DNA from: an uncultured Gemmatimonadaceae bacterium
Lineage (GTDB): Bacteria; Gemmatimonadota; Gemmatimonadetes; Gemmatimonadales; Gemmatimonadaceae
NCBI GenBank assembly: GCA_963740355.1
Contig: CAVUDW010000003.1
Location: 64,001 to 128,000 of the forward strand
Reading direction: 5' to 3'
Length of the DNA stretch: 64,000 nt
Both the position numbers and the translations under genes were made by a program. Below the pieces are notes generated by a model, which saw only the letters and a list, made by a program, of their open reading frames with translations, searched no databases and was not told where the DNA came from. Shown one piece after another: positions 3,176 through 46,919 of this stretch; the stretch's first letter is position 1, and each line of letters opens with the position of its first letter.

Positions 3176-4345
<1,170 letters not shown>

Positions 4346-10269: not shown

Positions 10270-10342
10270 TCGGGCTCGTCAATACCGCGTTGAGAGGCAC
10301 CCCTGCGCCACCGCGCGAAGACGCGCCCTGCGGCAAGGTTTC

Positions 10343-11167: not shown

Positions 11168-11328
11168 TTCGCGTCTTCGTTGCAGGATCACGATGCCCGC
11201 CAGAGCGGGCATCGTGCGTTTCGGGCGGTACGCGCACGATGTCGCGGCACACGTCACGAGTCGGCCACACTCGGAGACAGCGCAATTCGGGACTCGCGCG
11301 CGACCGCGCACACTGCGAGCGTTCCCGT

Positions 11329-26862: not shown

Positions 26863-28182
26863 TCATCCACGCGTGCGCAAGTCGATGACCCGCTTGGCTT
26901 TCCCTGCCGGCGTACGTTCCAGTGTGGCATGTGGCAGGACCGACACCGCCACGGTCACGCCGACCCGCACCTTGATGCGATCCTGCACTTCACCCGCGAT
27001 GCGACGCAGCGTCTCGAGCGGCAGTTCACCCATGCCCTGATGCAGTTCGCACCGGACATCCATCTGATCCAGCAGTCCGTCGCGGGTCACGTGTATGAGA
27101 TACTGTCCCGAAAGGTCGGCGTGTTCGAGCACGACTTCCTCGATCTGCGTCGGAAAGACATTCACGCCACGAATGATGAGCATGTCATCACTGCGCCCCG
27201 TGATCTTGGCCATGCGACGAAACGCGCGGGAGGTCGGCGGCAGCAGCCGCGTGAGATCACGCGTGCGGTACCGAATGACAGGCAACGCTTCCTTGGTGAG
27301 CGAGGTGAAGACGAGTTCCCCTTCGTCGCCGTCGGGCACCGGCGCACCGGTCTCAGGGTCCACGATCTCCGGGTAGAAATGATCCTCCCAGATCACCGGG
27401 CCATCCTTCGACTCGATGCACTCACTCGCCACGCCGGGCCCCATGACTTCCGACAAGCCATAGATGTCCACCGCATCGATGCCGGCCCTGCGCTCGATGT
27501 CGCTGCGCATTGCGTTCGTCCACGGTTCCGCACCGAAGATCCCGACCTTGAGCGAGCTGGCCACGGGGTCGAGGCCCATCCGTTCGAACTGTTCGATGAT
27601 CACCTGCATGTAGCTGGGGGTGACCATGATGATGTCGGGCCTGAAGTCCTGGATCAGCTGCACCTGCTTTTCGGTCTGGCCGCCAGACATCGGAATCACG
27701 GTGCACCCAAGCGCCTCGGCGCCGTAGTGCGCCCCGAGGCCGCCGGTGAACAAGCCATAGCCGTACGCGATGTGCACGATGTCGCCGGCACGACCGCCGG
27801 CCGCACGTATGGAGCGGGCCACCAGGTGGGCCCAGTTGGCGATATCCGTCTTCGTATACCCGACGACGGTTGGCTTCCCGGTGGTACCGGACGAGGCATG
27901 CACACGCACCACCTGTTCACGCGGCACGGCGAACATGCCGAATGGATAGTTGTCGCGCAGGTCTGCCTTGGTCGTGAACGGGAAGCGCGAGAGATCGCTC
28001 AACTGCCGCAGATCCTCTGGATGCACACCCGCAGCACTGAACGCATTCCGATAGTGCGGCACATGGTCGTACGCGCGCTGCAGCGTGGACCGTAGTCGGT
28101 CCAGCTGCAGCGCAGTGATCTCATCGCGGCTGGCGGTCTCGATCGGCTCGAGGTCGCCCGGGGCAGGTCGTCGCACAGGCAT
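26863..28182 (-). CDS. paaK: Phenylacetate--CoA ligase
   Basis: HASSGTTGKP, YGYGLFTGGLG, DIYGLSEVMGPGV, GRSDDMLIIRGVNVFP. Confidence 0.95.
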   Translation of the reverse strand: MPVRRPAPGDLEPIETASRDEITALQLDRLRSTLQRAYDHVPHYRNAFSAAGVHPEDLRQLSDLSRFPFTTKADLRDNYPFGMFAVPREQVVRVHASSGTTGKPTVVGYTKTDIANWAHLVARSIRAAGGRAGDIVHIAYGYGLFTGGLGAHYGAEALGCTVIPMSGGQTEKQVQLIQDFRPDIIMVTPSYMQVIIEQFERMGLDPVASSLKVGIFGAEPWTNAMRSDIERRAGIDAVDIYGLSEVMGPGVASECIESKDGPVIWEDHFYPEIVDPETGAPVPDGDEGELVFTSLTKEALPVIRYRTRDLTRLLPPTSRAFRRMAKITGRSDDMLIIRGVNVFPTQIEEVVLEHADLSGQYLIHVTRDGLLDQMDVRCELHQGMGELPLETLRRIAGEVQDRIKVRVGVTVAVSVLPHATLERTPAGKAKRVIDLRTRG

Positions 28183-28224
28183 CACTCGCTCCGATTCATC
28201 TGGTCACCGCCTTGCGCCACCCGG

Positions 28225-30279: not shown

Positions 30280-30875
30280 GACTTCGTTTCTCCCCAGGTT
30301 TTATACGTGGACACCTGCGTCGCACGATCGGCGGGCACTTCGCGCAGCGGTTCACATGCCACCAGCGTGGCGTGCAACTGCGCAGGCAGTGCCTGATAGA
30401 GCGCGGTGCCTTCGGTCTTCCAGTTCAGCATTTCGTCACTGACATCCTTCACGATCTTGGCGGGATTTCCGACAGCGACCTTTCGCTCGGGAATCACCAT
30501 GCCGGCCGGCACGAAGCAGAGCGCTCCAACGACGCAACCAGCACCGACGACAGCATTGTCCATCACCACGGCATTCATCCCAACCAGCGCGTTCGCGCCG
30601 ATGCGCGCGCCGTGAATGATCGCGCCGTGACCGATGTGGGCCCCGGGCTCGAGCACCACCGTGACACCAGGAAACATGTGGACGGTGCAATTCTCCTGTA
30701 CGTTGCACCCATCACCGATCACGATCCCGCCCCAGTCGCCCCGAATGGCGGCACCAGGTCCGATGTACACATCGCGACCGATGACCACATTGCCGGTGAC
30801 CGTTGCGTTGGGGTGCACATACGCCGACTCGTGCACCACGGGCACGAAGCCGTCGAAGGCGAAGATATTGGCCAC
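30276..30875 (-). CDS. paaY: PaaY-like hexapeptide-repeat (gamma-carbonic-anhydrase-like) protein
   Basis: PVVHESAYVHP, IRGDWG, NVQENC, HIGHGAIIHG; GTG start overlaps the paaJ stop. Confidence 0.88.
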   Translation of the reverse strand: MANIFAFDGFVPVVHESAYVHPNATVTGNVVIGRDVYIGPGAAIRGDWGGIVIGDGCNVQENCTVHMFPGVTVVLEPGAHIGHGAIIHGARIGANALVGMNAVVMDNAVVGAGCVVGALCFVPAGMVIPERKVAVGNPAKIVKDVSDEMLNWKTEGTALYQALPAQLHATLVACEPLREVPADRATQVSTYKTWGETKS

Positions 30876-32086
30876 TACACGCGCTCCAGGATCGTGGCCA
30901 TGCCTTGCCCGACACCGATGCACATCGTGGCCAACGCGTACCTGCCGCCGCTGCGCTGCAACTGGTGCGCTGCCGAGAGCAGGATCCGCGCGCCGCTCAT
31001 CCCCAGCGGATGCCCAAGGGCGATCGCGCCGCCGTTCGGGTTCACGCGCGCGTCGTCATCCGGGAGCCCGAGTTCACGCAGGCAGCCGAGCGACTGCGCC
31101 GCGAAGGCTTCGTTGAGCTCGATCACATCCATGTCAGCGAGTGTCAGCCCCGCCTTCTTCAGCGCGAGGTGCGTGGCGGGCACCGGGCCAAGGCCCATGA
31201 CACGTGGCTCGACGCCGGCCACGGCGCTGGTGACGAAACGTGCGAGTGGCGTCGCGCCCATGGCGGCCGCGCCGCGTGCCGAGCCGATCAACAAGGCGGC
31301 AGCCCCATCGTTGAGACCCGAGGCATTGCCTGCGGTCACCGAGCCCTTGCCATCGGTTCGGAATGCCGGCTTGAGTTTGGCGAGGATTTCGAGCGTGGTG
31401 TCCGCGCGGATGAATTCGTCGGTGTCGACGATTCGTGGGTCGCCCTTCTTCTGCGGTATCTCGACCGGCGTGATCTCCACGACGAATCTCCCCGCTGCGC
31501 GCGCGGCGGCGGCCTTCTGCTGCGATCGCAGCGCAAAGGCATCCTGGTCGGCGCGCGTGATGCCGAGCTGCTCCGCCACGTTCTCAGCCGTCTGCCCCAT
31601 GGAGTCGGTGCCGTATCGTAACTTCATCGCCGGGTTGACGAACCGCCATCCGAGGCTGGTATCGAACATCTCGATGTCGCGCGCGAACGGCTTGCTCGCC
31701 TTGCCCATCACGTACGGCGCGCGCGTCATGTTCTCGACACCGCCGGCGATATAGAGCTCGCCATCGCCACACTGCACTCCACGCGCTGCGTTCGCGACCG
31801 CGCTCATCCCCGATGCGCAGAGCCGGTTCACGGTTTCGCCAGGCACGGTGACTGGCAGGCCAGCCAGCAGCGCGGCCATCCGCGCCACGTTCCGGTTGTC
31901 GTCGCCCGACTGATTGGCGCACCCAAGGATCACATCGGTGAGCGCGGACGGATCGAGTGCCGGATGTCGCGCGACGACTCGCGCAATCACCTGTGCAGCG
32001 AGGTCGTCGGCGCGCACCTCGCTCAATTGGCCGCCAAGACTTCCAATGGCAGTGCGGAGGCCGTCAATGATGAAAGCGTCTGTCAT
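30875..32086 (-). CDS. paaJ: 3-oxoadipyl-CoA / 3-oxo-5,6-dehydrosuberyl-CoA thiolase (PaaJ/PcaF)
   Basis: [32 protein letters not shown]. Confidence 0.9.
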
Positions 32087-32571
32087 GATGCTGAGGCTGG
32101 GTCAGGTGCGACGGGATGCGCCTTGCGGGTGCGATACACCGTGCCGCGAAAGAGTGCGACGACGGTACCATGCTGATTGCACACCGTCACGCGATAGAAG
32201 CCGAGCCGGCCGCTGGAGGCGTCTTCCTCGGCAGTGGCGGTGAGATCGTCGTTCACATGAATCGGCGCCGGATACGCGATCTGGTTGTCCACTGCCACGG
32301 TCACGAACTCGCCGCTGTTGCAGGCGAAGGCCATCGCACTGTCGGCAAAGGCAAACACGATGCCGCCATGCGAGGCACCGAAGCCATTCACCATGTCGGG
32401 GCGCACGTGCATCTGCAGGACGCAGTGCCCTGGCCGCACGGATACCAGAGTGACGCCGAGCCAGCGGCTGAAGGCGTCGGTTGCAAGCATCTGCTCGGTG
32501 ATTTCGCGCGCACGTGTCACAGCTGGCGCAGCCACGTCGGTGGACGCCTGCTCCTTCGCGCCACCTGTCAT
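32083..32571 (-). CDS. paaI: PaaI hotdog-fold thioesterase
   Basis: [24 protein letters not shown]. Confidence 0.9.
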
Positions 32572-33752
32572 GCGAGCAGTCGCTCGCCAGTGATGACGCG
32601 GCGGCGCAGTAGTACACTGGCCCGATACCGATCCTCACCATATTCGCTGTGCAGCTCATCCAACCGTCGGAGCACGACGCTGGCGCCGATCTCGTCACCC
32701 CAGGCCAGCAATCCACGTGGGTAGTTGACGCCCTTGGTCATCGACAGTTCGATGTCGGCGGCAGACGCGATCCTGAGGTACAGCGCCTCGACCGCCTCGT
32801 TCACCAGCATCGCAAGCACACGATCCACGACCTGCGCGCCGAGTACCGGATCGCGCGTTGGTTCCGGCTTGGCGGCACCGTCGCGATAGTCGTAGAAGCC
32901 TCGCTGGCGCTTGCGTCCCCAGAAGCCTGCGTCAACCAATCGCTGCTGGGTAATCGACGGCCGGTACCGCGGATCCTGGAAAAAGCCTGCGTAGACGCTT
33001 TGCGTGACGGCGAAGTTGATGTCGTGGCCGATGAAGTCCATCAGCTCGAACGGCCCCATGCGGAAGCCGGCGAGTTCGCGCAGGGCCCAGTCAATGGTCG
33101 GTACGTCAGCGATGCCTTCTTCGAGAATGCGCAACGACTCACCATAAAATGGTCGGGCGATGCGATTGACGATGAAACCCGGTGTGTCGCGCGCCACGAC
33201 CGTCACCTTCTTCCACGAATCGACGAGCGAGCGGGCGCGCACGAGCACATCCTCGGCGGTCGTGATCGAGGGAATGATCTCCACCAGCGGCATGGCGACA
33301 GCCGGGTTGAAGAAGTGAATCCCGATCACACGCTCCTGTCGGCGACACTTGCCAGCGATTGCCGCGACGGGCAGCGACGACGTGTTGGTGGCGAGGATGC
33401 AGTGATCGTCCACTTCGCCTTCGAGGGCCGCGAAGAGCGTCGTCTTGACCGCGAGGACTTCTGCCACCGCCTCGATCACCAATCCACACGCGGCGAACGC
33501 GGCATATCCCGCGCCGAGCTCGCCCGCATCGGAGATTCGCGCGAGGGTTGCGTCAGCGGTCGCCTGATCGATCCGACCCTTCGCGACGTCATTCGCAAGG
33601 CCGGCAGCAATACCGGCACGTGCACGCGCCACCGCGTCAGCCGCGACGTCCCCCAGAATAACGGTGTGCCCCGACGCCGCCGCGACCTGTGCAATGCCGC
33701 TCCCCATTGCACCAGCGCCGATCACACCGACGATCATGCGTTCCTCTACCAT
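32568..33752 (-). CDS. paaH: 3-hydroxyadipyl-CoA dehydrogenase
   Basis: GAGAMGSGIA, ATNTSSL, HFFNP, PGFIVNR, MGPFELMDFIG; ATG 33752 overlaps the paaG stop; 394 aa. Confidence 0.88.
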   Translation of the reverse strand: MVEERMIVGVIGAGAMGSGIAQVAAASGHTVILGDVAADAVARARAGIAAGLANDVAKGRIDQATADATLARISDAGELGAGYAAFAACGLVIEAVAEVLAVKTTLFAALEGEVDDHCILATNTSSLPVAAIAGKCRRQERVIGIHFFNPAVAMPLVEIIPSITTAEDVLVRARSLVDSWKKVTVVARDTPGFIVNRIARPFYGESLRILEEGIADVPTIDWALRELAGFRMGPFELMDFIGHDINFAVTQSVYAGFFQDPRYRPSITQQRLVDAGFWGRKRQRGFYDYRDGAAKPEPTRDPVLGAQVVDRVLAMLVNEAVEALYLRIASAADIELSMTKGVNYPRGLLAWGDEIGASVVLRRLDELHSEYGEDRYRASVLLRRRVITGERLLA

Positions 33753-34543
33753 CAGCGCCCCTCGAACGTCGGCTTCCGCTTCTCGACGAAGGCGCGCACA
33801 CCCTCGGCGTAGTCGGCCGTGCGTCCGGCTTCGCGCTGCAACCCCTCCTCGAGATCGAGCTGCTCGTCGAGCGAGTTGGCGAATGACGCGTTCAAGCCGC
33901 GCTTCGAGAGCGCAATACCGCGCGTCGGCATCGTGGCGAGACGTTGCGCGAGCGCAAAGGTTCGCTCGTGCAGCTCGGCGTCTGGCACCACGTCGACGAC
34001 CAATCCCCATGCCTTCGCGTCGGACGCGAGCAGCTTGTCGCCCAGCATGGTGAGGAACGCCGCTCGCTGCAGGCCGACGATGCGGGGCAGGATGAACGTG
34101 CCGCCCCCGTCAGGAATGAGGCCGATCTTGGCGAAGCTCTGGATGAACGAGGCACTTTCACCTGCGATCGTGATGTCGCAGGCGAATGCGAGATTGGCAC
34201 CGGCGCCGGCCGCAACACCATTCACCGCGCACACGACAGGCTTGTCGAGTGTTCGGATGGCGCGGATGATCGGGTTGTAGTAGCGACGGATGATGTCGCC
34301 GAGGTCGGGCATCACACCGTCGTCGCCCGGCAATACGGCCGCGAGGTCCTGTCCCGCACAGAACGCGCGACCAGAGGCGGCGATCAGGACGGCGCGCACC
34401 GTCGCATCTGTCGCAGCCTGTTGCAACGCGTCGATCAACGCATCGGCCATTTCGCCGTTGAAGCTGTTGAGGACTTGCGGGCGGTTGAGCGTGATGGTGA
34501 GGACGCCATCGCGTTGCTGCAGCAGAATCGGGGCAGATTCCAT
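33752..34543 (-). CDS. paaG: 2-(1,2-epoxy-1,2-dihydrophenyl)acetyl-CoA isomerase
   Basis: FCAGQDL, GAGANLAFACD, IGLIPDGGGT (PaaG-type catalytic Asp); start at ATG 34543. Confidence 0.9.
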   Translation of the reverse strand: MESAPILLQQRDGVLTITLNRPQVLNSFNGEMADALIDALQQAATDATVRAVLIAASGRAFCAGQDLAAVLPGDDGVMPDLGDIIRRYYNPIIRAIRTLDKPVVCAVNGVAAGAGANLAFACDITIAGESASFIQSFAKIGLIPDGGGTFILPRIVGLQRAAFLTMLGDKLLASDAKAWGLVVDVVPDAELHERTFALAQRLATMPTRGIALSKRGLNASFANSLDEQLDLEEGLQREAGRTADYAEGVRAFVEKRKPTFEGR

Positions 34544-34723
34544 CGGGTGGCCGACTGGACGTGAAGCAGGGGCAGCGTGCGCCAGGATCTCGAGACAGGC
34601 AGAACGCTGCGGCAGCGTGGAATATACCGATGTGCAACGGGGGCGACCGATGCCTCCCATTCGGCTCTGCGGGGCACCACATTTGAGGCGCTTGCAGTCC
34701 GGCCGCCCCCTTCCCGCTCAGTG

Positions 34724-36853
34724 ATGCACGACGCTAACTCGCACGACCACTTCGAACCCGTTGGGTGGCCGGTCGACACACGCTTCGACTGGCGGCGGAT
34801 TGCGTATCACGCCCTGGCATCGCGTGCGCTCGACGACCTCGAGGAGACCACCAACCGCAACCGCACCTCCGTGCCGCGGGAGCATCTGGTGCTCTACCAG
34901 TTCTCGGCGCGTGGGCACGATGTCGGCCAGAGCATCCTCGGATCGCTGCTTGGGCATCCGCACGACGGTGTCGGCGCCTACTATCGATCGCGCCCGCTGT
35001 TGCTCTCCCTTGGTCTGTCGATCGACGACGCGCATGGCAGCCCACTCGGCCGCGCCGGCGGCTTCAGCGATGGCCGCGACATTGGAGTGGTCTGCAATCG
35101 ACCGGGATGGAACGGCGCCACGGTGCTGCCGATGGCAGGTGATGTCGGGGCACAGTTCACGCCCGCGATCGGCTGGGCGCAGGCGATCGCGTATCGTCGC
35201 CACGAATTGGCTGACGAGTCGTACACCGGCGCACTGGCAGTCGCTCTCGGGGGTGATGCGAGTGTCGCCACGAGCGGTTTCTGGTCGGCGCTGACGATCG
35301 CAACCACGCTTCGCCTGCCGATGCTGTTCTACATCGAGGACAATGGACTCGGTATCTCGGTGCGCAGCGACATGCAGACACCGGGTGGGGACATTGCGTC
35401 CAATCTGGCGTCGTTCGGCAACCTCTTCCTGCGCAACGGCGACGGCTGCAATCCGGCCGAAGCCGCCGAGTGCATTGCCGATTGTGTGACACATGTGCGG
35501 AATGGCCTCGGTCCGGCCCTCGTCCGGCTGACGGTGCCTCGCCTGAGCAGTCATTCCGGGCCAGACAATCAGCGTGGGTATCGGACGGATGAGGAGATCG
35601 AGGCCGACACGGCGCGCGATCCGCTGCCGCGTTTGAAGGCGCATCTGGTCCCAGCGTTCATGTCCGTCGACGAATGGACCGCGCTGGAACACGAAGTGGC
35701 GACCGCCGTGGAATCCGGGGTGGCGGGTGCGCGGGCGCGCGGTGCTCCAGATGCTGCCGATGTGCGCCGGTTCGTGTACGAGGAGGCGCCACGGGCGGGT
35801 GACGCACCAACCTTCGGTGGCCTCACCCGCGAGGAACGCGGAACCCTGCCGTCGACGGAGCACGCCTCCAGCGACGGCGACGTGATGCGGCTGGCCGAGG
35901 CAATTCGCCGAACCCTGGCGACGGAGCTGGCACTCAATCCGAAGGTGGTCGTGTTCGGCGAAGACGTCGGCCGCAAAGGCGGCGTGCATCTGGTGACCGA
36001 AGGGTTGCAGAAGCGGTTCGGCGGCGAGCGAGTGTTCGACACCAGCCTGTCGGAAGAAGGAATCATTGGACGCGCAGTGGGCATGGCCGTGAATGGGCTG
36101 ATGCCTGTCGCCGAAATCCAGTTCCGGAAGTATGCCGATCCGGCGCACGAGCAGTTGAACAACTGCGGCACCATGCGCTGGCGCACGGCGAATCAGTTTG
36201 CAGCGCCGATCGTGGTCCGCATGCCCGGTGGTTTCGGCAAGGATGTCGGGGACCCGTGGCACTCGCTCTCTGGCGAAGTGACGTGGGCGCATGCAGTCGG
36301 GTGGCAGGTCGCCATGCCTTCGAATGCAGCCGACGCGGTGGGGCTGCTGCGGGCGGCGATGCGCAGCGGCAATCCGACGATCTTCTTCGAGCACCGGTCG
36401 CTGCTCATGACCAGCGACGGCAGTGCGCGGTACCCGGGTGACGAATACGTCCTGCCATTCGGTCGCGCGAACCGGCTGCGCGAGGGTAGCGACCTGACCG
36501 TCGTGACATGGGGGGCGATGGTGCACCGCTGCACCGACGCCGCGGATCGTTTCGACGGGCGAATCGATCTGCTCGACCTTCGTACCATTGCGCCGTGGGA
36601 CAGGACGGCGGTGCTGGAGTCTGTCTCACGCACGGGAAAGTGCCTGATCGTGCATGAAGACACGCTGACCGCAGGCTTCGGTGCGGAGATCGCCGCAGTA
36701 CTGTCGCAGGAGGCGTTCTGGATGCTCGACGCTCCGGTGGAGCGGCTGGCTGTGCAGGACGTGCCGATGCCGTACCACGAGAATCTGTTGAGCGCGGTGC
36801 TGCCGGATGCCGATCGCATTGCGCATCGTATCGACGTGCTGCTGAAGACCTGA
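34724..36853 (+). CDS. Fused E1 alpha/beta ThDP-dependent 2-oxoacid dehydrogenase (branched-chain-type family)
   Basis: 709 aa. Alpha part: YYRSRP, GDAS...EDNG (ThDP motif), RLSSHS. Beta part: FGEDVG, FDTSLSE, AEIQF, HED. Confidence 0.88.
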   Translation: MHDANSHDHFEPVGWPVDTRFDWRRIAYHALASRALDDLEETTNRNRTSVPREHLVLYQFSARGHDVGQSILGSLLGHPHDGVGAYYRSRPLLLSLGLSIDDAHGSPLGRAGGFSDGRDIGVVCNRPGWNGATVLPMAGDVGAQFTPAIGWAQAIAYRRHELADESYTGALAVALGGDASVATSGFWSALTIATTLRLPMLFYIEDNGLGISVRSDMQTPGGDIASNLASFGNLFLRNGDGCNPAEAAECIADCVTHVRNGLGPALVRLTVPRLSSHSGPDNQRGYRTDEEIEADTARDPLPRLKAHLVPAFMSVDEWTALEHEVATAVESGVAGARARGAPDAADVRRFVYEEAPRAGDAPTFGGLTREERGTLPSTEHASSDGDVMRLAEAIRRTLATELALNPKVVVFGEDVGRKGGVHLVTEGLQKRFGGERVFDTSLSEEGIIGRAVGMAVNGLMPVAEIQFRKYADPAHEQLNNCGTMRWRTANQFAAPIVVRMPGGFGKDVGDPWHSLSGEVTWAHAVGWQVAMPSNAADAVGLLRAAMRSGNPTIFFEHRSLLMTSDGSARYPGDEYVLPFGRANRLREGSDLTVVTWGAMVHRCTDAADRFDGRIDLLDLRTIAPWDRTAVLESVSRTGKCLIVHEDTLTAGFGAEIAAVLSQEAFWMLDAPVERLAVQDVPMPYHENLLSAVLPDADRIAHRIDVLLKT

Positions 36854-36882
36854 TGCGCCGCTGACAGACTTCTGATCGCACG

Positions 36883-36908
36883 CTGCAACCGTACACTGCA
36901 ACCGTACA
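36883..36908. repeat. Tandem 13-bp duplication CTGCAACCGTACA x2 in the convergent spacer between E1 and paaD
   Basis: Read directly; GTTGCAG at 36928-36934 is complementary to the start of the unit. Confidence 0.85.
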
Positions 36909-36950
36909 CGCGTCGATCTGCCTGTGTGTTGCAGACGCCGCAGGGCGCGA

Positions 36951-37466
36951 TCAGATCGCCTTGAACTCCTCGAACGGCTGCCGACAGCTTCGGCACCAGC
37001 AGAGCGACTTGCAGGCGGTGCTGCCGAATTCGCTGCGGATCTCCGTTTCGAAGGAGTCGCAGAAGGGGCACTGCACCGAAGGTCGAGCGCGCATCAACTG
37101 CACCAGGCCGCCGGACTCGGCGCGGCCTGGCGGTGCGATGCCATACGCTTTCAATCGGGCGCGCGCGTCGGGGCTGATCCAGTCGGTCGTCCAGGGCGGC
37201 GAAAACGTCGTCTTCACCGACACCGGCGAAATCCCCGCCGCGTCGAGGGCGGCCGTGATGTCATTCTCGATCACGAGAATCGCAGGGCAACCAGAATACG
37301 TCGGTGTCACTGTGACCGTGACGCCACCATCAGCATCCACCTCGACCTCGCGTACGATGCCGAGGTCGCGGACGCTGAGCACCGGCACCTCGGGATCCTT
37401 CACTGTATCGAGGATCGAGAGGACCTCGTCGCGCGTCGGCACCGCCGGTCGCGGACCCGCTACCAC
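36951..37466 (-). CDS. paaD: Phenylacetyl-CoA epoxidase subunit D
   Basis: VKDPEVPVLSV, TPTYSGCP, WTTDW, CPFC...FGSTACK...CRSC; GTG start at 37466. Confidence 0.92.
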   Translation of the reverse strand: MVAGPRPAVPTRDEVLSILDTVKDPEVPVLSVRDLGIVREVEVDADGGVTVTVTPTYSGCPAILVIENDITAALDAAGISPVSVKTTFSPPWTTDWISPDARARLKAYGIAPPGRAESGGLVQLMRARPSVQCPFCDSFETEIRSEFGSTACKSLCWCRSCRQPFEEFKAI

Positions 37467-38260
37467 TTCGCGCCCGGATGCGAGCGGGCCACGATCTGCA
37501 TCTCGGCGAGCAGGTGGCCGAGGTGCTCGGAATGTGCACCCTGTCGTGCGGTGCGACCGGCGCGCAGCGGCACATCGGCCGGCACTGTGAGCGTGGCGCG
37601 TTCGCAGACATCGCGAACGATTGCGCTCCATTGCACGTGCAGCGCCAGCGGTTCCGGTGCAAGCCCATCGGCAATCGCGAGACGATCGATCTCGTCGGTG
37701 GCGAACAGTTCCGGCGTGAAGCGCCACAGACCATCGAGTGCGCGCTGCATCCGCTGGTGACTCTCCTCGGTGCCATCACCGAGCTTGAGCATCCAGTCAC
37801 CGCTATGGCGCACATGATACTTCGCTTCCTTCAGCGACTTGGCCGCGATCGCGGCCAGCTCCGGATGTGTGCTGCGGGTGAGCGCATCGAGCGCAACCAC
37901 CGCATACACATCGTAGAGGAACTGCCGGACGATGGTGACGGCGAAATCGCCGTTCGGCTGCTCGACCAGCAGGCAGTTGCGGAACTGCGTTTCATCGCGG
38001 AAATAGGCGAGCGCATCCTCATCACGCCCCTTCCCTTCGGCCTCGCCCGCCAGGCGAAGGAACATCGTGGCCTGGCCGATCAGGTCGAGTGCGACATTCG
38101 CGAGCGCGATGTCTTCCTCGAGAATCGGGCCATGGCCACACCACTCACTGACACGATGGCCGAGCACGAGGCGATCGTCGCCGAGGCGCAGGAGCACCTC
38201 GAACAGCACGTTGGGGGGCGTCGGTGGTGCCGGGACGACTGAGAACTGTGGAGCGGTCAT
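37460..38260 (-). CDS. paaC: Phenylacetyl-CoA epoxidase subunit C
   Basis: GDDRLVLGHRVSEWCGHGPILEEDIA, LAYFRDE, KEAKYH. Confidence 0.95.
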   Translation of the reverse strand: MTAPQFSVVPAPPTPPNVLFEVLLRLGDDRLVLGHRVSEWCGHGPILEEDIALANVALDLIGQATMFLRLAGEAEGKGRDEDALAYFRDETQFRNCLLVEQPNGDFAVTIVRQFLYDVYAVVALDALTRSTHPELAAIAAKSLKEAKYHVRHSGDWMLKLGDGTEESHQRMQRALDGLWRFTPELFATDEIDRLAIADGLAPEPLALHVQWSAIVRDVCERATLTVPADVPLRAGRTARQGAHSEHLGHLLAEMQIVARSHPGAKW

Positions 38261-38586
38261 AGGACTCGAACGCCGCGAGGCACCTTGTAGAACTGCGGGT
38301 GTCGATAGGCCTTGTCGGCCCCCGGATCGAAGAACGGTCCGTTGTCACCGGGGCTGGAGGCCGTGATGGCCGCCGCGGGCACGACCCAGAGTGAAATCAC
38401 GCCACCGCGGCGCGCGTAGACGTCGCGCGCATTCTGCAGCGCCTGCTCGTGATCGACCGCGTGCAACGATCCCGCATGTTCGTGCGGCGCTCCCTGCTCC
38501 GTCTGCGTAAACACTTCCCACAAAGGCCACTGGCCGTCAGCGGGAATCGCCTGCGCCTGTGCACCCAGATCCGAGTTGCTGCTCAT
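38257..38586 (-). CDS. paaB: Phenylacetyl-CoA epoxidase subunit B
   Basis: WPLWEVF, HAGSLHA, ARDVYARR, DKAYRHP. Confidence 0.94.
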   Translation of the reverse strand: MSSNSDLGAQAQAIPADGQWPLWEVFTQTEQGAPHEHAGSLHAVDHEQALQNARDVYARRGGVISLWVVPAAAITASSPGDNGPFFDPGADKAYRHPQFYKVPRGVRVL

Positions 38587-38605
38587 GCCTGCTCCCCGGC
38601 GAGGT

Positions 38606-39583
38606 TCACGCCGCCACCGATGATCCGCTGTCGCGCTTCTTGCTGGCGTACGCCATGGCTGCTTCACGCACCCACGCGCCGTCACGCTCGGCCGCGCGCC
38701 GCTTCTCGAGCCGTTCCAGGTTGCACTGTCCATTGCCGCGCACGACTTGATGGAACTCATCCCAGTCGATGGCGCCGAACTCCCAGTTCTCGGTCTCCTC
38801 GTTGTAGCGGAGATCGGGATCGGGCAACGTCAAGCCGACAGCGGCAGCCTGTGGCACCGTGAGGTTGATGAAGCGCTGGCGCAGCTCGTCGTTCGACTTC
38901 TTCTTCACGCCCCAGCGCATCAACTCCGCAGAGTTCGGCGAGTCCTTGTCGCTTGGGCCGAACATCATCAAGGCCGGCCACCAGAAGCGATTCACCGCAT
39001 CCTGCACCATCGCCTTCTGCGCTGGCGTGCCGGCGGCGAGCACCGACACCATCTCGTAGCCCTGGCGCTTGTGGAAATTTTCTTCCTTGCAGATGCGAAT
39101 CATCGCGCGCGCGTACGGGCCGTACGACGCCTTCGCGAGAATGGTCTGGTTCACGATCGCTGCGCCATCCACCAGCCACCCGATGACACCCATGTCCGCC
39201 CAGGAGAGCGTCGGATAGTTGAAGATGCTCGAGTACTTGGCGCGGCCATCGAGCAGCTGTGCCAGAATCTCCGTGCGATCGACGCCAAGCGTCTCGACAC
39301 CGCAGTAGATGTAGAGGCCATGGCCCGCTTCATCCTGCACCTTGGCGAGTAGGCCGACCTTTCGGCGCAGCGACGGCGCGCGGGTGATCCAGTTGCCTTC
39401 GGGGAGCATGCCGACGATCTCGGAGTGCGCGTGCTGCGACATCATCCGGATCAATTGCTTGCGATACCGCTCCGGCATCCAGTCTTTCGGCTCGATGCTT
39501 TCACCGTTGGCGATCCGGTCTTCGAAGGCGGCGATCGCCGCCGGATCCTCGGCCGTTGTGTCGATGGCGCGTGTCTGAGTCAT
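38606..39583 (-). CDS. paaA: Phenylacetyl-CoA epoxidase catalytic subunit A
   Basis: [21 protein letters not shown]; diiron ligands KVQDEAGH and KEENFH; start at ATG 39583. Confidence 0.96.
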
Positions 39584-39652
39584 GCCTGAATCTACCGGAG
39601 GTGCACAGGTGGACAATGGACGCCCCGGTGGGCCGGGGTGTAGTTTCGCCGC

Positions 39653-40441
39653 ATGGAAAATAGGACTCTGGTACGAACTGAAGCCGTGGCCGGTGGCGAA
39701 GTCTCGGTTGCGTTTGCGAACGGCGTGGCGACCATCCGTTTTTCGCATCCCAAGGGCAACTCTCTGCCGGGTGCACTGCTGCAGCACCTCGCCCGGACGA
39801 TTACCGACGTCGGGCAACACCCGGACGTCACCGTGATCGTGCTGGGCAGCGGCGGCACAGGTCCCTTCTGCGCCGGCGCCTCCTTCGAGGAACTGGTGAA
39901 GATTGCAACGCCCGAGGAAGGCGAAGAGTTCTTCAGCGGCTTTTCGCAGGTCATCCTGGCCATGATCCGGACCCCGCAATTCGTCATCGTGCGCGTCCAT
40001 GGGCGGACCGCAGGTGGCGGGATCGGCATCGCGGCTGCTGGGGACTACACCATGGCGAGCCGGAACGTTTCGGTGAAGTTGAGCGAATTGGCGGTCGGGA
40101 TCGGGCCGTTCGTCGTTGGGCCAGTCATTGCGCGTCGTGTCGGCATGGGGCCGTTCATGGCGATGTCGGTGGACGCAGACTGGCGTGACGCATCGTGGTG
40201 CGAACACCATGGCCTCTTTGCGCGCGTGTTTGACGACGTCGCTTCGCTGGACGCGGGCATCGACGCGCTTTCGCGCACGCTCTCGACCTCGAATCCGGAA
40301 GCGATGCGGCTCATGAAGGGGGTCGCGTGGCAGGGCACGGAAGACTGGGATTCGCTGCTTGCCGAACGCGCGCGCATGAGCGGCACCCTGGTGCTGTCCG
40401 ACTTCACGCGACAGGCGATCGCGAAGTTCAACGCCAAGTAG
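39653..40441 (+). CDS. Enoyl-CoA hydratase/isomerase (crotonase) with methylglutaconyl-CoA-hydratase-like signature
   Basis: FCAGA, GGGIG (first catalytic Glu absent), [10 protein letters not shown]; divergent from paaA. Confidence 0.82.
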
Positions 40442-40492
40442 TCCGCGTCGGCCCGGTGTTTAACACGACATCGGGCCGACGGTCGCTCGCGG

Positions 40493-41686
40493 TCACACGT
40501 TCTGTGCGACCGACCGCAACGAATCAGCGAAGCTGGTGGCGTATCCGTGCGCTCGCAGGTGCTGCATGGCTGCGTACACCGGCGCCTCGAGCTGCTCGGC
40601 GGCCTCCACCATCGTGCCGATGTCGAAGGGCACATCAGCGACACGCGCGAGATATTCCTCGGCGGCGGTGAGATACCCCATCATCCCGCCCAGCTCCGTC
40701 GGTGCGTACGCCTTCCGAGCCTGCCGCAGGAGTTCCGTACCGGCAGCCTCGTCGGGCATGGCGAGGTTTTCCGAGCCGCAGACGATGCGGAGGCGCGGAT
40801 TGGCCGCGATGACGCCGATCGACGCCATGTCCAGGGAACCACCAGCAGCGTTCACCACCAGCGCATCGATCGGGCTGGCGAGCAGGGCGGCCTTGGCCTC
40901 GGGCGCGAACACCTCGACACCCATCGCGGCCAGTTCCGCGCGCCGCTTGTCACTGGCATCGAGAGCGAGGATGTGCGTGCCCTGTGCGCGCAACCGCTCG
41001 AGGACTCGCGACCCAACGTTGCCGCAGCCAATCAGTCCAACCGTTGCATCCGGCAAGGCGATGTCACGCGCGCGAAGCATCGCCGCGAGCACGTGAAAGT
41101 TGCCCTGACCGGTGGGCTGTGACGTGTCCGAGACGACGCAACCGCGGAAGCGTGCATTGAGGTAGTCGAGCGATCGGGTCGTGCCATCCGACATCAGGCC
41201 ATGGCCAAGATCCTGGCCGGTGGTGATGAAGAATCCGCCGCGATCTTCCGCGTCGTGCAGACAGTCGATTGCGAAATCGAGCAGCGCCTGATCGTGCGGC
41301 TGTCCAACACGGGCATCGGCACTGGGGTGCAGCACACACTTGCCACCGACGATGCGGTTGGTGTCGCGGCGTGCGAGGGGGCCCGCGATCCCGAGCAGGC
41401 GCGACCACCCCACCTTCTCTTCCATCCCCACGGCGAGCCCAGCGGCCTCATGATCGGTATCGAAGCCGGCGGATTCCGTGCGTTCAAGCGGCGCAATCCG
41501 AAAGCCGCCCAGCGACAGCCGTCCGGAGCCCGGCGCGGCGCAGGTCGCGATGCTCAGCCGCCACCCGTGGGTCGGGTCGACGTAGCGGTAGATCCACACG
41601 TCAGGCGGCTCGCCGGCGTGACCTGTCGGGATCAGGGCGGCGGTGTCCGGCGGACAAAGCACCGTCGGGACGGGAGCGCGTGACAT
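40493..41686 (-). CDS. Divergent Glu/Leu/Phe/Val (amino-acid) dehydrogenase-like protein
   Basis: Colinear family-like motifs: LGGFR, LAVGMEEK, VGGK, FITTGQDLG, TSQPTGQG, Rossmann GCGNVG, NAAGG, IVCGSEN, YAP; start at ATG 41686. Confidence 0.7.
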   Translation of the reverse strand: MSRAPVPTVLCPPDTAALIPTGHAGEPPDVWIYRYVDPTHGWRLSIATCAAPGSGRLSLGGFRIAPLERTESAGFDTDHEAAGLAVGMEEKVGWSRLLGIAGPLARRDTNRIVGGKCVLHPSADARVGQPHDQALLDFAIDCLHDAEDRGGFFITTGQDLGHGLMSDGTTRSLDYLNARFRGCVVSDTSQPTGQGNFHVLAAMLRARDIALPDATVGLIGCGNVGSRVLERLRAQGTHILALDASDKRRAELAAMGVEVFAPEAKAALLASPIDALVVNAAGGSLDMASIGVIAANPRLRIVCGSENLAMPDEAAGTELLRQARKAYAPTELGGMMGYLTAAEEYLARVADVPFDIGTMVEAAEQLEAPVYAAMQHLRAHGYATSFADSLRSVAQNV

Positions 41687-41861
41687 ACGAAGAATGGCGG
41701 ACTCGGGTGTGGACGGCGGCAGGCGAGAGGCCGGAACGCTAACGGAACACGCCGTGCGGACCCAGTGAGTCCGCACGGCGCGCAAGAAAGACGGACCAGT
41801 CTGACTTCACGTCACAGTACGCCGAAGCACCACGATCTGTTGCATCGGCGCACGGACCTCC

Positions 41862-42784: not shown

Positions 42785-44348
<1,564 letters not shown>

Positions 44349-46704: not shown

Positions 46705-46919
46705 GGGCGGGGCACGAAGCAGTTGGCGACGGAACGTGACATCGTCGGAGATATAGCAGCCGGTGCTGTGGTGTGCGGACCGATTCGCTTGACTGTTGCC
46801 CGACCAGGTGCTGCTGAGCATGCCCGAACCGGTCGCGAGGGTTAACCTCGTCTCTGTCCGGCGCGCCGAACACCGTGGGCGCACGCTTCAGGCCGGACAC
46901 ACTCCGGAGCGAGCCGCGC

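Follow-up and report, generated by a model that had tools for sequence, protein, structure and literature searches.

A candidate phenylpyruvate dehydrogenase E1 encoded within the paa gene cluster of Gemmatimonadota

The substrate with which the paa pathway begins is phenylacetyl-CoA, and a 2-oxoacid dehydrogenase gene embedded among paa genes raises the question of whether this thioester could be formed directly from a 2-oxoacid. In the window analyzed here, the whole 64,000-nucleotide stretch of DNA from a soil bacterium of the Gemmatimonadaceae, a gene for a fused E1 alpha/beta 2-oxoacid dehydrogenase component of 709 amino acids (34724..36853, plus strand) is sandwiched between paaK-Z-Y-J-I-H-G and paaD-C-B-A, all on the minus strand. 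The first group consists of the phenylacetate-CoA ligase gene paaK (26863..28185; TIGR02155, 709.2 bits vs. cut-off 646.3), paaZ, encoding a bifunctional aldehyde dehydrogenase/MaoC hydratase (28225..30279; TIGR02278, 980.9 vs. 562.8), a paaY-like hexapeptide-repeat gene (30276..30923; Pfam Hexapep), the thiolase gene paaJ (30875..32086; Thiolase_N, Thiolase_C), a paaI-like thioesterase gene (32083..32571; 4HBT), a paaH-like 3-hydroxyacyl-CoA dehydrogenase gene (32568..33746; 3HCDH_N, 3HCDH) and paaG, for 1,2-epoxyphenylacetyl-CoA isomerase (33752..34543; TIGR02280, 347.6 vs. 345.15). The start of the paaH-like gene is approximate (the ORF extends to 34010, with domains from about residue 89), and its product scores below the equivalog cut-off (TIGR02279, 449.1 vs. 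669.4). The second group consists of paaD (36951..37440, start approximate; TIGR02159, 198.6 vs. 108.15, and Zn_ribbon_PaaD), paaC (37460..38260; PaaA_PaaC, 320.7 bits), paaB (38257..38540, start approximate; PaaB, 128.2 bits) and paaA (38606..39560, start approximate, the model beginning at residue 229 of a long ORF; TIGR02156, 504.7 vs. 280). The placement of E1 between paaABCD and paaGHIJYZK and on the opposite strand, as given in the preliminary description, is thus borne out by the ORF, Pfam and NCBIfam evidence. In the 180 bp divergent intergenic region between the starts of paaG and E1 (34544..34723, read from the sequence), no sigma-70-like site and no terminator were found, nor was there a conserved motif or a shared operator or promoter motif across 33 loci.

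The E1 ORF spans 34577-36853, and the first Met, at 34724, yields the 709-residue protein, with an alpha part of approximately residues 1-384 and a beta part of residues 385-709. The E1_dh match (residues 126-391 of the long ORF) occurs together with Transket_pyr and Transketolase_C in one ORF, which identifies the protein as a fused E1 alpha/beta; its scores fall under the cut-offs of the NCBIfam PDH E1 models. The Gly/Asp of the ThDP motif, E-x-N, Arg273, His277 and Asp281 are in columns invariant with respect to the PDH and BCKDH-like E1 alpha subunits of the same genome, and GEDVG and His513 are invariant across the protein's own family; all these columns are taken to have catalytic roles. 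In a FastTree phylogeny of 103 rows, the paa-type E1s form a clade of 76 rows (support 97); a stem of 0.66 with support 100 sets this clade apart from a second fused E1 paralogue and from the split E1s. The closest solved relatives of the alpha part are branched-chain-type E1 alpha subunits (1um9_A, 79.7 bits; 1qs0_A, 53.8), and the public (JGI) annotation of the family is '2-oxoisovalerate dehydrogenase E1'.

Across 151 Gemmatimonadota genomes, an E1 orthologue, defined by a score of at least 725 bits (a gap in the score list) or by a split pair in genome G124, was identified in 32. PaaA was above the cut-off in 31 genomes, all of which carry the E1 orthologue, compared with 1 of the 120 PaaA-negative genomes and none of the other 119, although the surveyed genomes are related and not independent. 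The single exception (G097) is the weakest match (52% identity) and has an unrelated gene context. Outside the phylum, all five genomes with an unlinked orthologue have PaaA above the cut-off elsewhere in the genome. Physical linkage to paa genes is the rule among the orthologues; an island inherited or lost as a unit would leave the same phyletic pattern even if its genes had no function in common.

This linkage had been set beforehand as a test on which the proposed association could fail, and it was found in most cases: two or more paa genes flank E1 in 52 of the 56 loci labelled Gemmatimonadota and in 14 of the 24 from other phyla. Among the 31 PaaA-positive genomes, the coordinates place E1 no more than 10 kb from paaA in 21; of the remaining ten, six were inspected, and paaG, paaH or paaI adjoins E1 in all six, with E1 directly 3' of paaGHI on the same strand in three (G031, G146 and G125). 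E1 keeps with paa genes across three gene orders and also where the cluster is split. Orthologue arrays in Steroidobacteraceae have the order Lrp/AsnC, E1-E2, paaX, paaABCDE; among the 24 non-Gemmatimonadota loci, a divergent upstream Lrp/AsnC regulator is present in 17, and paaX follows in 11. The Lrp/AsnC-E1-E2 layout in Gammaproteobacteria resembles the bkdR-bkd arrangement of a bkd operon. In Balneolaceae (L075 and L079), a class I/II aminotransferase gene is directly upstream, and in L080 the gene after the orthologue encodes a pyridoxal-dependent decarboxylase (family PF00282).

The same genome also encodes PDH E1 alpha, E1 beta and E2 with Lpd, BCKDH-like E1 alpha, E1 beta and E2, SucA, SucB with Lpd, and the second fused E1. 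Paralogues of this second type (35-41% identity among the listed matches) recur in most of the 151 genomes of the phylum, 140 of which have some match at E ≤ 1e-50. The paa-cluster E1 is therefore not the general branched-chain or housekeeping E1 of the genome, and the concern that it might be the only BCKDH E1 is answered by the PDH, BCKDH-like and SucA/SucB sets together with the second fused E1. The three E2 (2-oxoacid_dh) matches are on contigs C1 and C2, and both Lpd genes are on C2, whereas the window is part of contig C3, which confirms the earlier remark that the window lacks E2 and E3 genes.

No dedicated E2 or E3 gene was found beside E1 in the 56 Gemmatimonadota-labelled loci, nor a dedicated one in the window genome. 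In contrast, the gene immediately 3' of E1 encodes an E2 in 20 of the 24 loci outside the phylum, and two Gemmatimonadota genomes (G031 and G124) likewise have E2 after E1. Pfam assigns lipoyl, E3_binding and catalytic domains to four of the E2 proteins from other phyla (L069, L081, L071 and L084); in a fifth (L076), truncated by a contig end, the catalytic domain alone is seen. When two copies of the E1 beta part were modelled with residues 125-180 of the genome's own BCKDH-like E2, the predicted docking score was 0.77, compared with 0.22 for the best of three controls; at least 90% of contacts are common to the runs, and the partner pLDDT is at least 83. Among solved complexes, 116 of 157 attain the docking mark, as against 2 of 215 mismatched pairs; because the model was built on a custom alignment, these counts apply to it only approximately. 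Given that complexes of E1 with the binding domain have already been solved, the pass may stem from the predictor's memory of them, so that the model shows a predicted likeness to such complexes rather than binding by this copy. The suggestion that E2 and E3 are shared with another complex fits the dedicated E2 in relatives, the lack of one in the window genome and the predicted docking to the host E2 binding domain.

If E1 leads directly to phenylacetyl-CoA, PaaK would be bypassed. A PaaK-like gene (TIGR02155, E ≤ 1e-60) was detected in 8 of the 31 PaaA-positive genomes, and none was found at this threshold in the other 23; a further search of five of these 23 at E ≤ 1e-5 (three are single-contig, at 99% completeness) gave no match in any. 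IorA was not above the cut-off in any of five genomes searched. The bypass envisaged in the preliminary description gains support from the 23 genomes, although these may have an unrecognised ligase or CoA-transferase that activates phenylacetate. The PaaK of the window genome, adjoining paaZ, is bona fide, so the bypass is not needed there.

The second enzyme invoked at this locus is a divergent amino-acid dehydrogenase of the ELFV superfamily (397 amino acids, minus strand; ORF 40493-41785, with the first Met giving 40493-41686), which had been described as flanking paaA. A crotonase-family gene (39653..40441, plus strand), absent from that description, intervenes: it is divergent from paaA, and the dehydrogenase gene, on the same strand as paaA, converges on it. 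Pfam ELFV_dehydrog scores below the cut-off (20.4 vs. 23.4 bits) and covers only the Rossmann loop. The AlphaFold2 model (pLDDT 90.8), however, has full-length Foldseek matches to phenylalanine and leucine dehydrogenases, the best being the phenylalanine dehydrogenase 1bw9_B (E = 3.7e-18, TM 0.66/0.75), with leucine dehydrogenase next; the predicted fold does not separate the two by a meaningful margin. An hhalign comparison with canonical short ELFV enzymes (probability 95.95%, E = 5e-9, 316 columns) aligns Lys91, Lys116 and Asp159 to the catalytic Lys68, Lys80 and Asp115, and the GCGNVG loop is identical. The dehydrogenase is present in 8 of the 151 genomes, all PaaA-positive (8 of 31), and within 4 kb of paaA in seven of the eight; in four related loci (L015, L021, L023 and L058) it is directly beside genes for 4-hydroxyphenylpyruvate dioxygenase (HPPD) and an HgmA-like protein, so that its substrate may be Tyr and not Phe. 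Hence, of the proposed amino-acid step, the fold and catalytic residues hold up, whereas the restriction to 8 of 31 genomes and the tyrosine-pathway neighbours weaken it; we propose, from sequence and context, aromatic amino acids, Phe and/or Tyr, as its putative substrates. A canonical short ELFV dehydrogenase elsewhere in the genome, beside an acyl-CoA-dehydrogenase-like ORF (assigned by sequence motif alone), could serve branched-chain amino acids.

Taken together, these observations suggest that the E1 at 34724-36853 is probably the E1 of an NAD-linked phenylpyruvate dehydrogenase that borrows E2 and E3 and yields phenylacetyl-CoA without PaaK; its substrate and product and the identity of the E2 are those we infer. 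Under this scheme, phenylpyruvate would be decarboxylated by E1 in a ThDP-dependent reaction and the lipoyl arm of E2 reductively phenylacetylated; the phenylacetyl group would then pass to CoA, and the lipoamide would be reoxidised with NAD+ by E3, each of the two Lpd proteins being a candidate for this role. With no dedicated E2 in the window genome, E1 would attach to a host E2 through the latter's peripheral subunit-binding domain, the candidates being the BCKDH-like E2 (C1) and that of PDH (C2). The product would be the substrate of the PaaABCD encoded next to it. Phenylpyruvate would come from L-Phe via ordinary transaminases and, in the window genome and a few relatives, additionally from the dehydrogenase, converting L-Phe or L-Tyr with NAD(P)+ to the arylpyruvate and NH4+. 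The route from Phe through phenylpyruvate to phenylacetyl-CoA put forward in the preliminary description is thereby supported on both points open to computation, paa linkage and the presence of other BCKDH-type genes. If true, this would be a new catabolic variant of the already proposed routes (PglB/C, IorAB).

That E1 acts on branched-chain 2-oxoacids or on a broad range of 2-oxoacids, unconnected with phenylpyruvate in particular, and belongs to a general amino-acid catabolic island with paa genes as co-inherited neighbours, appears unlikely. This reading is favoured by the BCKDH-type nearest solved alpha subunits, the JGI family name, the bkdR-bkd-like Lrp/AsnC-E1-E2 layout in Gammaproteobacteria, and the peptidases, amino-acid permease and homogentisate-route genes of the window. 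However, the genome already has the BCKDH-like E1 alpha, E1 beta and E2, the widespread fused paralogue and the canonical short ELFV dehydrogenase, and the clade is absent from 119 of 120 PaaA-negative genomes, although branched-chain catabolism should be general in the phylum. Moreover, E1 stays with paa through three gene orders and split clusters, and all five unlinked cases in other phyla co-occur with PaaA. Quite unlikely as well is an E1 for another aryl or related 2-oxoacid (4-hydroxyphenylpyruvate, indolepyruvate or phenylglyoxylate), or a general arylpyruvate dehydrogenase with phenylacetyl-CoA among several products. The HPPD and HgmA-like genes beside the dehydrogenase and paa cluster in relatives and the PF00282 decarboxylase in L080 are compatible with such a role, and the known ferredoxin-dependent analogue is reported to accept several arylpyruvates (PMC5109826). 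Nevertheless, the one pathway showing both co-occurrence and linkage throughout the 31 genomes is paa, which starts from phenylacetyl-CoA. Benzoyl-CoA and 4-hydroxyphenylacetyl-CoA are not known to enter PaaABCD.

The lack of an adjacent E2 in the 56 Gemmatimonadota-labelled loci and of a dedicated one in the window genome, together with the PaaK of the latter, would be in line with an E1 that needs no E2 and instead decarboxylates phenylpyruvate non-oxidatively, or acts as a carboligase, in a ThDP-dependent reaction leading via phenylacetaldehyde to phenylacetate and its subsequent activation. This is highly improbable given that the search gave no PaaK-like gene for activating the acid in 23 of the 31 carriers, that relatives encode a dedicated lipoyl E2 after the orthologue (20 of 24 loci in other phyla, as well as G031 and G124), and that a predicted E2-docking site is kept on the beta part (with the reservation on memory made above). 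PaaE (TIGR02160) was not found in the window genome, G135 or G016, nor by tblastn, and the E1 gene occupies the paaE position of other clusters; still, there is only a negligible chance that E1 replaces this missing reductase or otherwise gives electrons to the PaaABCD oxygenase, considering that 14 of the 24 loci outside Gemmatimonadota, and also genome G066, have PaaE as well as the orthologue. We know of no route from E1 enzymes of this type to a di-iron oxygenase.

Genes for peptidases, for an amino-acid permease and for the homogentisate route also lie in the window; as context, on the minus strand, there are genes for a distant homogentisate-dioxygenase-like cupin (1024..2214; Pfam HgmA_N, 43 bits; TIGR01015, 48.3 vs. 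510.75), 4-hydroxyphenylpyruvate dioxygenase (3176..4300; TIGR01263, 461.4 vs. 277) and, for the end of the homogentisate route, acetoacetate-CoA ligase (8043..10064; TIGR01217, 836.9 vs. 520.9). The crotonase-family gene next to paaA (262 amino acids; Pfam ECH_1, 83 bits) may encode the PaaF-type hydratase for which no other gene is seen, and such a gene recurs beside paaA in half (28) of the 56 loci labelled Gemmatimonadota.

The fused E1 alpha/beta gene (34724–36853, + strand), proposed in the preliminary description to convert phenylpyruvate directly to phenylacetyl-CoA with a borrowed E2 and E3, was searched for in a sample of 151 Gemmatimonadota genomes (G-numbers), its own genome (G000) included. 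The line between orthologues and other relatives was drawn at a gap in the E1 score list that was fixed before any comparison. Orthologues were found in 32 of the 151 genomes, i.e. 31 with matches of at least 725.7 bits (52–100% identity) and G124 with a split pair of matches (487.5 and 419.9 bits); the next matches reach at most 416.8 bits (about 35–41% identity) and are of the same type as a second fused E1 of the source genome. This second type is widespread in the phylum, and some E1 match at E ≤ 1e-50 was present in 140 of the 151 genomes. PaaA was detected above the curated cut-off in 31 genomes, all 31 of which carry an E1 orthologue, compared with only one of the 120 PaaA-negative genomes (G097); the other 119, including two flagged as unpublished (G056 and G096), on which none of the positive findings depends, have neither. 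As the genomes are related, this co-occurrence is to be read as a pattern rather than as a statistical test. Presence of E1 is scattered: one of three genomes of one genus (g5), three of 11 in another (g23) and nine of 72 in one family (f2). The homologue in G097, the weakest match (52% identity), adjoins asparagine synthase and glycosyltransferase genes in a genome without PaaA, and was rejected as an orthologue.

By coordinates, E1 lies no more than 10 kb from paaA in 21 of the 31 PaaA-positive genomes. Six of the other ten were inspected (G143, G051, G109 and G147 were left out), and in all six, which have split clusters, paa genes stand beside E1. Thus, E1 is divergent from paaG-H-I-J-Y-Z in G066 and G102, with paaA 0.9–1.6 Mb away; G146 and G125 have paaG-H-I-E1 on one strand, with few bases between paaI and E1; G031 has a one-strand paaG-H-I-E1-E2 arrangement; and in G124, E1 occupies two reading frames, with E2 about 2.4 kb further on. 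The two pieces in G124 (contig C5, locus L122, ~9137–11200) match residues 21–362 and 365–707, and may represent a real alpha/beta gene split, a frameshift or an assembly error.

In species genomes, 599 matched stretches included 594 relatives of E1; the best 80 of these were kept and their flanks searched by tblastn with the window proteins (E ≤ 1e-10). Within these best 80 of 594, two or more paa genes were found in the flanks of 52 of the 56 Gemmatimonadota-labelled loci, the remaining four being three contigs of at most 3.5 kb and one contig that ends 540 bp upstream of E1. The other 24 loci come from Steroidobacteraceae, other Gammaproteobacteria, Balneolaceae, a Sulfomarinibacteraceae metagenome-assembled genome and unclassified sources; two or more paa genes are present in 14, a single one in one and none in nine, six of these nine having ample flank. 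In all five genomes examined with an unlinked E1 (loci L075, L079, L080, L071 and L084), PaaA was detected above the cut-off elsewhere. Linkage of E1 orthologues to paa genes in other genomes, on which the proposal depended, is thus confirmed. Among the same 24 loci of the best 80, an Lrp/AsnC regulator is divergently upstream of E1 in 17, paaX is present in 11, and paaE follows paaABCD in 14; in both Balneolaceae loci, E1 is immediately preceded by a class I/II aminotransferase gene. In a FastTree phylogeny of 103 rows, a quick tree with several long outgroup branches, all these paa-type E1s form a clade (support 97); the stem that sets it apart from the split PDH- and BCKDH-like E1s and the second fused E1 measures 0.66 (support 100).

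By domain content, the window E1 is a member of the alpha/beta (heterotetramer-type) class of 2-oxoacid dehydrogenase E1s, with Pfam matches to E1_dh (72.7 bits), Transket_pyr (107.8 bits) and Transketolase_C (112.6 bits), all above the cut-offs. The alpha part was aligned with those of two orthologues and the second fused E1 and with the PDH and BCKDH-like alpha subunits of the source genome; G177, E205, N207, R273, H277 and D281 are invariant with respect to the PDH and BCKDH-like E1 alpha subunits, and in the beta part the GEDVG motif (E413) and H513 are invariant within the family alignment. From work on BCKDH and PDH, we take these residues to be the ThDP/Mg motif and the active-site His and Asp of the alpha part, and the ThDP-activating Glu and His of the beta part. 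The protein falls under the NCBIfam PDH E1 cut-offs (TIGR03181, 98.4 vs. 411.35; TIGR03182, 82.6 vs. 393.85; NF006667, 233.6 vs. 321), which the true PDH subunits of the same genome do pass. Among solved structures, the beta half has unremarkable matches (255.1 bits to 1ik6_A, 243.7 bits to 1um9_B), and the alpha half, on the substrate side, is very divergent (79.7 bits to 1um9_A, the branched-chain-type enzyme of Thermus, and 45.9 bits to human PDH alpha). Judged by sequence, the protein looks like a working but unusual E1. Family members are 78–88% identical across many metagenomic Gemmatimonadota and are currently labelled '2-oxoisovalerate dehydrogenase E1' or 'transketolase C-terminal domain-containing protein'.

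The source genome (5.45 Mb, five contigs, 94.5% complete) has five E1_dh matches above the cut-off and three E2 genes. Contig C2 holds a PDH set (E1 alpha, E1 beta and E2, above the NCBIfam cut-off) with Lpd, LipA and LipB, as well as SucA and SucB with a second Lpd; an E1 alpha/E1 beta/E2 set on C1, under both the PDH and the SucB cut-offs, is named BCKDH-like by exclusion. The second fused E1 (698 aa, 36% identical to the window E1) is also an orphan (C3, 1793620–1795713, corresponding to L092:8621–10717), and its neighbours are an OmpA-like gene and unassigned open reading frames. A canonical ELFV dehydrogenase of 359 aa follows, on C2, an open reading frame that is acyl-CoA-dehydrogenase-like as judged by a sequence motif only. 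The separate E1 alpha/E1 beta/E2 set and this canonical dehydrogenase indicate that the usual branched-chain equipment sits elsewhere in the genome. The window E1 is thus not the only BCKDH-type E1, given the BCKDH-like set and the second fused E1, and the earlier interpretation withstands both refutations open to computation: that E1 would be the sole BCKDH E1, and that paa linkage would be missing elsewhere.

The preliminary description found no E2 or E3 gene in the window, and none is present on the whole contig either. In the 24 loci outside Gemmatimonadota (best 80 of 594), an E2 gene directly follows E1 in 20. In Pfam searches, four such E2 proteins have lipoyl, E3_binding and catalytic domains, and a fifth, cut by the contig end, has the catalytic domain only. 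The E2 of G031 likewise has all three domains, and that of G124 has lipoyl and catalytic domains, with no E3_binding match at the threshold used; both are 47–57% identical to the gammaproteobacterial E2s. An E2 of this orthologue-accompanying type was not found in the source genome, where the best tblastn matches are the C1 and SucB E2s (34–39% identity). The BCKDH-like and PDH E2s of this genome both carry an E3_binding domain. When two copies of the E1 beta half were modelled with residues 125–180 of the BCKDH-like E2 from C1, the predicted docking score was 0.77, compared with 0.22 for the best of three controls, a pass that may reflect memorised structures, since complexes of this kind have already been solved. 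Of 157 solved complexes, 116 pass the docking mark, and of 215 mismatched pairs, 2 do; these counts apply only roughly, because our own alignment was used. Contacts are at least 90% the same from run to run, the partner pLDDT is at least 83, and the modelled E2 binding domain spans both beta copies (residues 638, 665–670 and 708–709). In these models the docking surface of E1 looks canonical; that the BCKDH-like E2 is the actual partner does not follow.

When the PaaK family was searched at E ≤ 1e-60, matches were found in 19 of the 151 genomes, eight of them among the 31 paa-positive genomes (G000, G083, G125, G146 and G147 above the cut-off; G091, G031 and G124 below it), leaving 23 of the 31 with no match at this threshold. 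Five of these 23 were searched again at E ≤ 1e-5, again with no match; three of the five are single contigs with 99% completeness. The flanks of the 56 Gemmatimonadota-labelled loci (best 80 of 594) yielded no PaaK either. As PaaK was not found in most carriers, E1 is the only conserved candidate for making phenylacetyl-CoA seen there, and this absence, which was not part of the original evidence, is the strongest argument for the proposed bypass of PaaK. It is possible that carriers without a PaaK match use another ligase or a CoA-transferase to make phenylacetyl-CoA. PaaK-like ligases below the cut-off (545–554 bits) occur about 10 kb or less from E1 in G031 (L121:3657–5441, a long open reading frame of 594 aa with an N-terminal extension) and in G124 (C5, 32500–33759). 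The ferredoxin-dependent IorAB route was rejected for these genomes, with no IorA above the cut-off in the five genomes searched.

We consider it fairly probable that the window E1 is a phenylpyruvate (arylpyruvate) dehydrogenase E1 that feeds phenylacetyl-CoA to PaaABCD via a borrowed E2 and E3, an interpretation that gains two new supports from the failure to find PaaK in most carriers and from the dedicated E2 in relatives. The rest of the probability is shared by three other readings and some smaller options. The family could have branched-chain or broad specificity and have travelled with the island, in line with its present label and with the Thermus match; general presence, an E2 of its own and linkage to Leu/Val or acyl-CoA dehydrogenase genes, which would be expected of a branched-chain E1, were not found for the window E1. 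It could alternatively be an E1 for another aryl 2-oxoacid, or a non-oxidative decarboxylase. A further role, that of a stand-in for the reductase PaaE, was rejected: PaaE (TIGR02160) was not found at E ≤ 1e-5 in G000, G135 and G016 despite complete paaABCD, but orthologues of E1 coexist with PaaE in other lineages. PaaE adjoins paaABCD in G066, and G102 has only a weak match with an internal stop.

The gene map of the window, obtained from an open reading frame listing with Pfam and NCBIfam scans, places E1 on the + strand between two blocks of paa genes on the − strand. The first block comprises paaK (26863–28185), paaZ (28225–30279), a paaY-like gene (30276–30923), paaJ (30875–32086), a paaI-like gene (32083–32571), a paaH-like gene (32568–~33746) and paaG (33752–34543), and is separated from E1 by a 180-bp gap (34544–34723). 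The second consists of paaD (36951–~37440), paaC (37460–38260), paaB (38257–~38540) and paaA (38606–~39560). A crotonase-family gene (39653–40441, +), divergent from paaA, is followed on the − strand by a dehydrogenase gene (40493–41686, 397 aa), a PEP-CTERM protein gene (41862–42494) and an O-acetylhomoserine sulfhydrylase gene (42785–44263). The coordinates and gene order in the preliminary description were right, except that the crotonase-family gene between paaA and the dehydrogenase had been missed. The G+C content of the window DNA is 62–68%, and the nearest relatives of its proteins carry Gemmatimonadaceae or Gemmatimonadota labels. A consensus scan of 34300–37100 gave no promoter-like and no terminator-like sites, and the k-mers common to 33 paaG–E1 intergenic regions, delimited by approximate boundaries, were GC-rich strings only, with no shared operator or promoter.

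The crotonase-family gene may fill the step of a PaaF-type hydratase, since the cluster otherwise has none. It is present in 28 of the 56 Gemmatimonadota-labelled loci (best 80 of 594), and all its best NCBIfam matches are far under the cut-off. A carboxylesterase gene (25145–26722, −; Pfam COesterase, 374 bits) directly follows paaK on the same strand and was not found in the flanks of any of the 80 related loci (best 80 of 594).

The dehydrogenase, which was proposed to produce phenylpyruvate from Phe, has relatives of about 400 aa that are mostly labelled 'hypothetical protein' (60–95% identity in Gemmatimonadota-like sources). It falls under the Pfam gathering score for ELFV dehydrogenases (PF00208, 20.4 vs. 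23.4, residues 221–276 only), and a search of the genome with PF02812 (E ≤ 1e-5) returned three other genes and not this one; the matches of a 30-member family profile to LeuDH, TrpDH and PheDH (E = 3.6e-5 to 2e-3) are confined to the C-terminal half. The AlphaFold2 model (pLDDT 90.8, pTM 0.89) has the two-domain ELFV fold, with Rhodococcus PheDH (1bw9_B) as the top Foldseek match (E = 3.7e-18, 381 columns, TM 0.66/0.75), followed by LeuDH, TrpDH and GluDH; the margin of PheDH over LeuDH is small. Alignment by hhalign with canonical short ELFV enzymes (probability 95.95%, E = 5e-9, 316 columns) pairs Lys91 with Lys68, Gly114-Gly115-Lys116 with Gly78-Gly79-Lys80 and Asp159 with Asp115, and the GCGNVG loop is identical; the Lys, GGxK, Asp and loop residues are invariant in the 30 family members. 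These are presumably the carboxylate-binding Lys, the catalytic Lys, the catalytic Asp and the dinucleotide-binding loop, as in LeuDH and PheDH. Relative to Rhodococcus PheDH (1bw9, 1c1d) and LeuDH, which are the best structural matches, with the catalytic Lys/Lys/Asp and GCGNVG aligned over ~380 columns, identity is only 15–22%, and there is an insertion of ~13 residues between the two lysines. Gly157 pairs with Ala113 of the canonical enzyme; we take PheDH to have Gly here. The top of the fold list, Gly157 and the aromatic-pathway neighbours hint at a preference for L-Phe, as far as sequence and model can tell.

This dehydrogenase is present in eight of the 151 genomes, all paa-positive, and lies at most 4 kb from paaA in seven of the eight; it occurs in nine of the best 80 of the 594 loci. 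In four loci (L015, L021, L023 and L058), it is directly beside an HgmA-like gene and a 4-hydroxyphenylpyruvate dioxygenase gene; in L050, both of these genes are in the locus and not adjacent to the dehydrogenase. In the window, the segment 3–10064 on the − strand holds an HgmA-like cupin (1024–2214, far under the hmgA cut-off), 4-hydroxyphenylpyruvate dioxygenase (3176–4300) and acetoacetate-CoA ligase (8043–10064), and looks like a tyrosine/homogentisate-type set; it further contains an amino-acid permease gene cut at the window edge, an unassigned 275-aa open reading frame and a prolyl oligopeptidase gene. As this set is directly adjacent in related loci, about 30 kb has apparently come to lie between it and the paa/dehydrogenase genes in the window. 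Given the predicted fold, the alignment of catalytic residues and the paa and tyrosine-gene neighbours, the preferred reading of the protein is an aromatic amino-acid dehydrogenase with Tyr as a possible substrate besides Phe, and an accessory source of 2-oxoacid rather than a fixed part of the route.

A lipoyl-type precedent has been proposed for the L-phenylglycine operon of Streptomyces pristinaespiralis, where, in the available portion of the source, a 'pyruvate dehydrogenase-like complex' formed by PglB and PglC is 'suggested' to convert phenylpyruvate to phenylacetyl-CoA (PMC7089894). Like the window E1, PglB/PglC represent E1 alpha and beta with the same proposed reaction, and the operon as listed there (pglA–E) has no E2 or E3; however, they are two separate proteins, encoded in an actinomycete operon for the biosynthesis of an antibiotic precursor (PMC7089894, in part), whereas the window E1, compared here by description only, is fused, and the catabolic paa clusters that carry it span four phyla. 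For Phaeobacter inhibens, the accessible text of PMC7497051 describes a direct step from phenylpyruvate to phenylacetyl-CoA that bypasses phenylacetate, and IorAB is named in a pathway figure legend for this organism (PMC6122490, legend); an excerpt of PMC5109826, with Desulfococcus and Pyrococcus as examples, names indolepyruvate:ferredoxin oxidoreductase as the enzyme that turns arylpyruvates into arylacetyl-CoA. Like the proposed E1 route, IorAB performs direct oxidative decarboxylation without free phenylacetate or PaaK and feeds PaaABC-type enzymes, but it belongs to an unrelated, ferredoxin-dependent family, whereas the E1 route would be NAD-linked and lipoyl-dependent; Pfam finds E1-type domains and no 2-oxoacid:ferredoxin oxidoreductase domains in the window E1, so that the likeness is one of function and not of membership. 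PaaK, the canonical entry, likewise supplies phenylacetyl-CoA to PaaABC(D)E, but is ATP-dependent and starts from free phenylacetate.

The solved BCKDH E1s (Thermus thermophilus 1um9, Pseudomonas putida 1qs0 and 2bp7, human 1dtw) share the fold family and ThDP chemistry with the window E1 and rank among the best solved matches to both its halves, but their subunits, in contrast to it, are not fused; the very divergent alpha half and the confinement of the clade to paa-positive genomes also set the window E1 apart. DHTKD1 is an E1 of the OGDH-type single-chain class. According to the part of the literature at hand, this human 2-oxoadipate dehydrogenase E1a is an extra E1 of distinct specificity that uses the E2 and E3 of another complex; it acts in a different pathway, and for the window E1 such borrowing is only inferred. 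The E1 route thus builds on the PglB/PglC proposal, the IorAB route and the E2-borrowing E1s, and is no new category. Annotation of the paa pathway is usually anchored on PaaK. Among the papers found, some available in part, none describes an E1/E2/E3-type enzyme in a catabolic paa cluster, and none was found that joins 'phenylpyruvate dehydrogenase' with 'phenylacetyl-CoA'; PMC9239090, in the portion available, describes a different route to phenylacetyl-CoA. A 2026 survey of the pathway picks genomic contexts around paaK, and its main text does not contain 'phenylpyruvate', 'oxoacid', 'E1 component' or 'Gemmatimon' (PMC13186573).

A wider claim, to which we would give about an even chance, is that free phenylacetate is never an intermediate of the 'phenylacetate' pathway of Gemmatimonadota, nor probably of that of Steroidobacteraceae, Balneolaceae and some Acidobacteriota, and that the pathway serves phenylalanine instead. 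Its regular entry would be a dedicated, oxygen-tolerant, NAD-linked phenylpyruvate dehydrogenase complex, in which the fused E1 clade works, depending on the lineage, with an E2 of its own or with a borrowed one; PaaK would be optional, and some of the genomes would obtain the 2-oxoacid from a previously unrecognised ELFV-type family of aromatic amino-acid dehydrogenases. If entry is through this E1 clade, phenylalanine is degraded via paa genes, with no ligase, in many soil and marine genomes, and carriers without PaaK are predicted to grow on Phe or phenylpyruvate and not on phenylacetate. The family that now goes by the '2-oxoisovalerate dehydrogenase E1' and 'transketolase C-terminal domain-containing protein' labels would gain a specific function, representing a fourth natural specificity among lipoyl-dependent 2-oxoacid dehydrogenase complexes and a bacterial example of E2/E3 borrowing. 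The value of the proposal lies in this testable reassignment of a widespread, mis-labelled family and of the paa pathway entry in these bacteria; an oxygen-tolerant enzyme converting phenylpyruvate to phenylacetyl-CoA could also be of use in engineering tropone, phenylglycine and penicillin-G precursors.

Several further features of these loci were observed. Related paa clusters repeatedly carry a MATE-family transporter gene, next to E1 or following paaZ (L011:12394–13821, L020:12265–13827, L061:3935–5386, L039:2312–3718, L053:1601–3124 and L119:17969–19372); it is absent from the paa cluster of the window, and the best tblastn match in the genome lies elsewhere on C3. Downstream of the cluster, the window has three large Ser/Thr protein kinase genes (44425–46884, 50663–53542 and 57338–60001) with TPR or PD40 repeats, and kinase genes are also found near the paa clusters of L039, L045, L119 and L122. 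Among the distant relatives of E1, one protein (P0293) joins E1 alpha/beta to a lipoyl and an E2 catalytic domain in a single chain, and in two others (P0298 and P0343) E1 alpha/beta is fused with a lipoyl and a KAS III (FabH-like) domain, P0343 additionally having KR and carrier-protein domains; fusions of this type look like starter-unit loaders for fatty-acid or polyketide synthesis.
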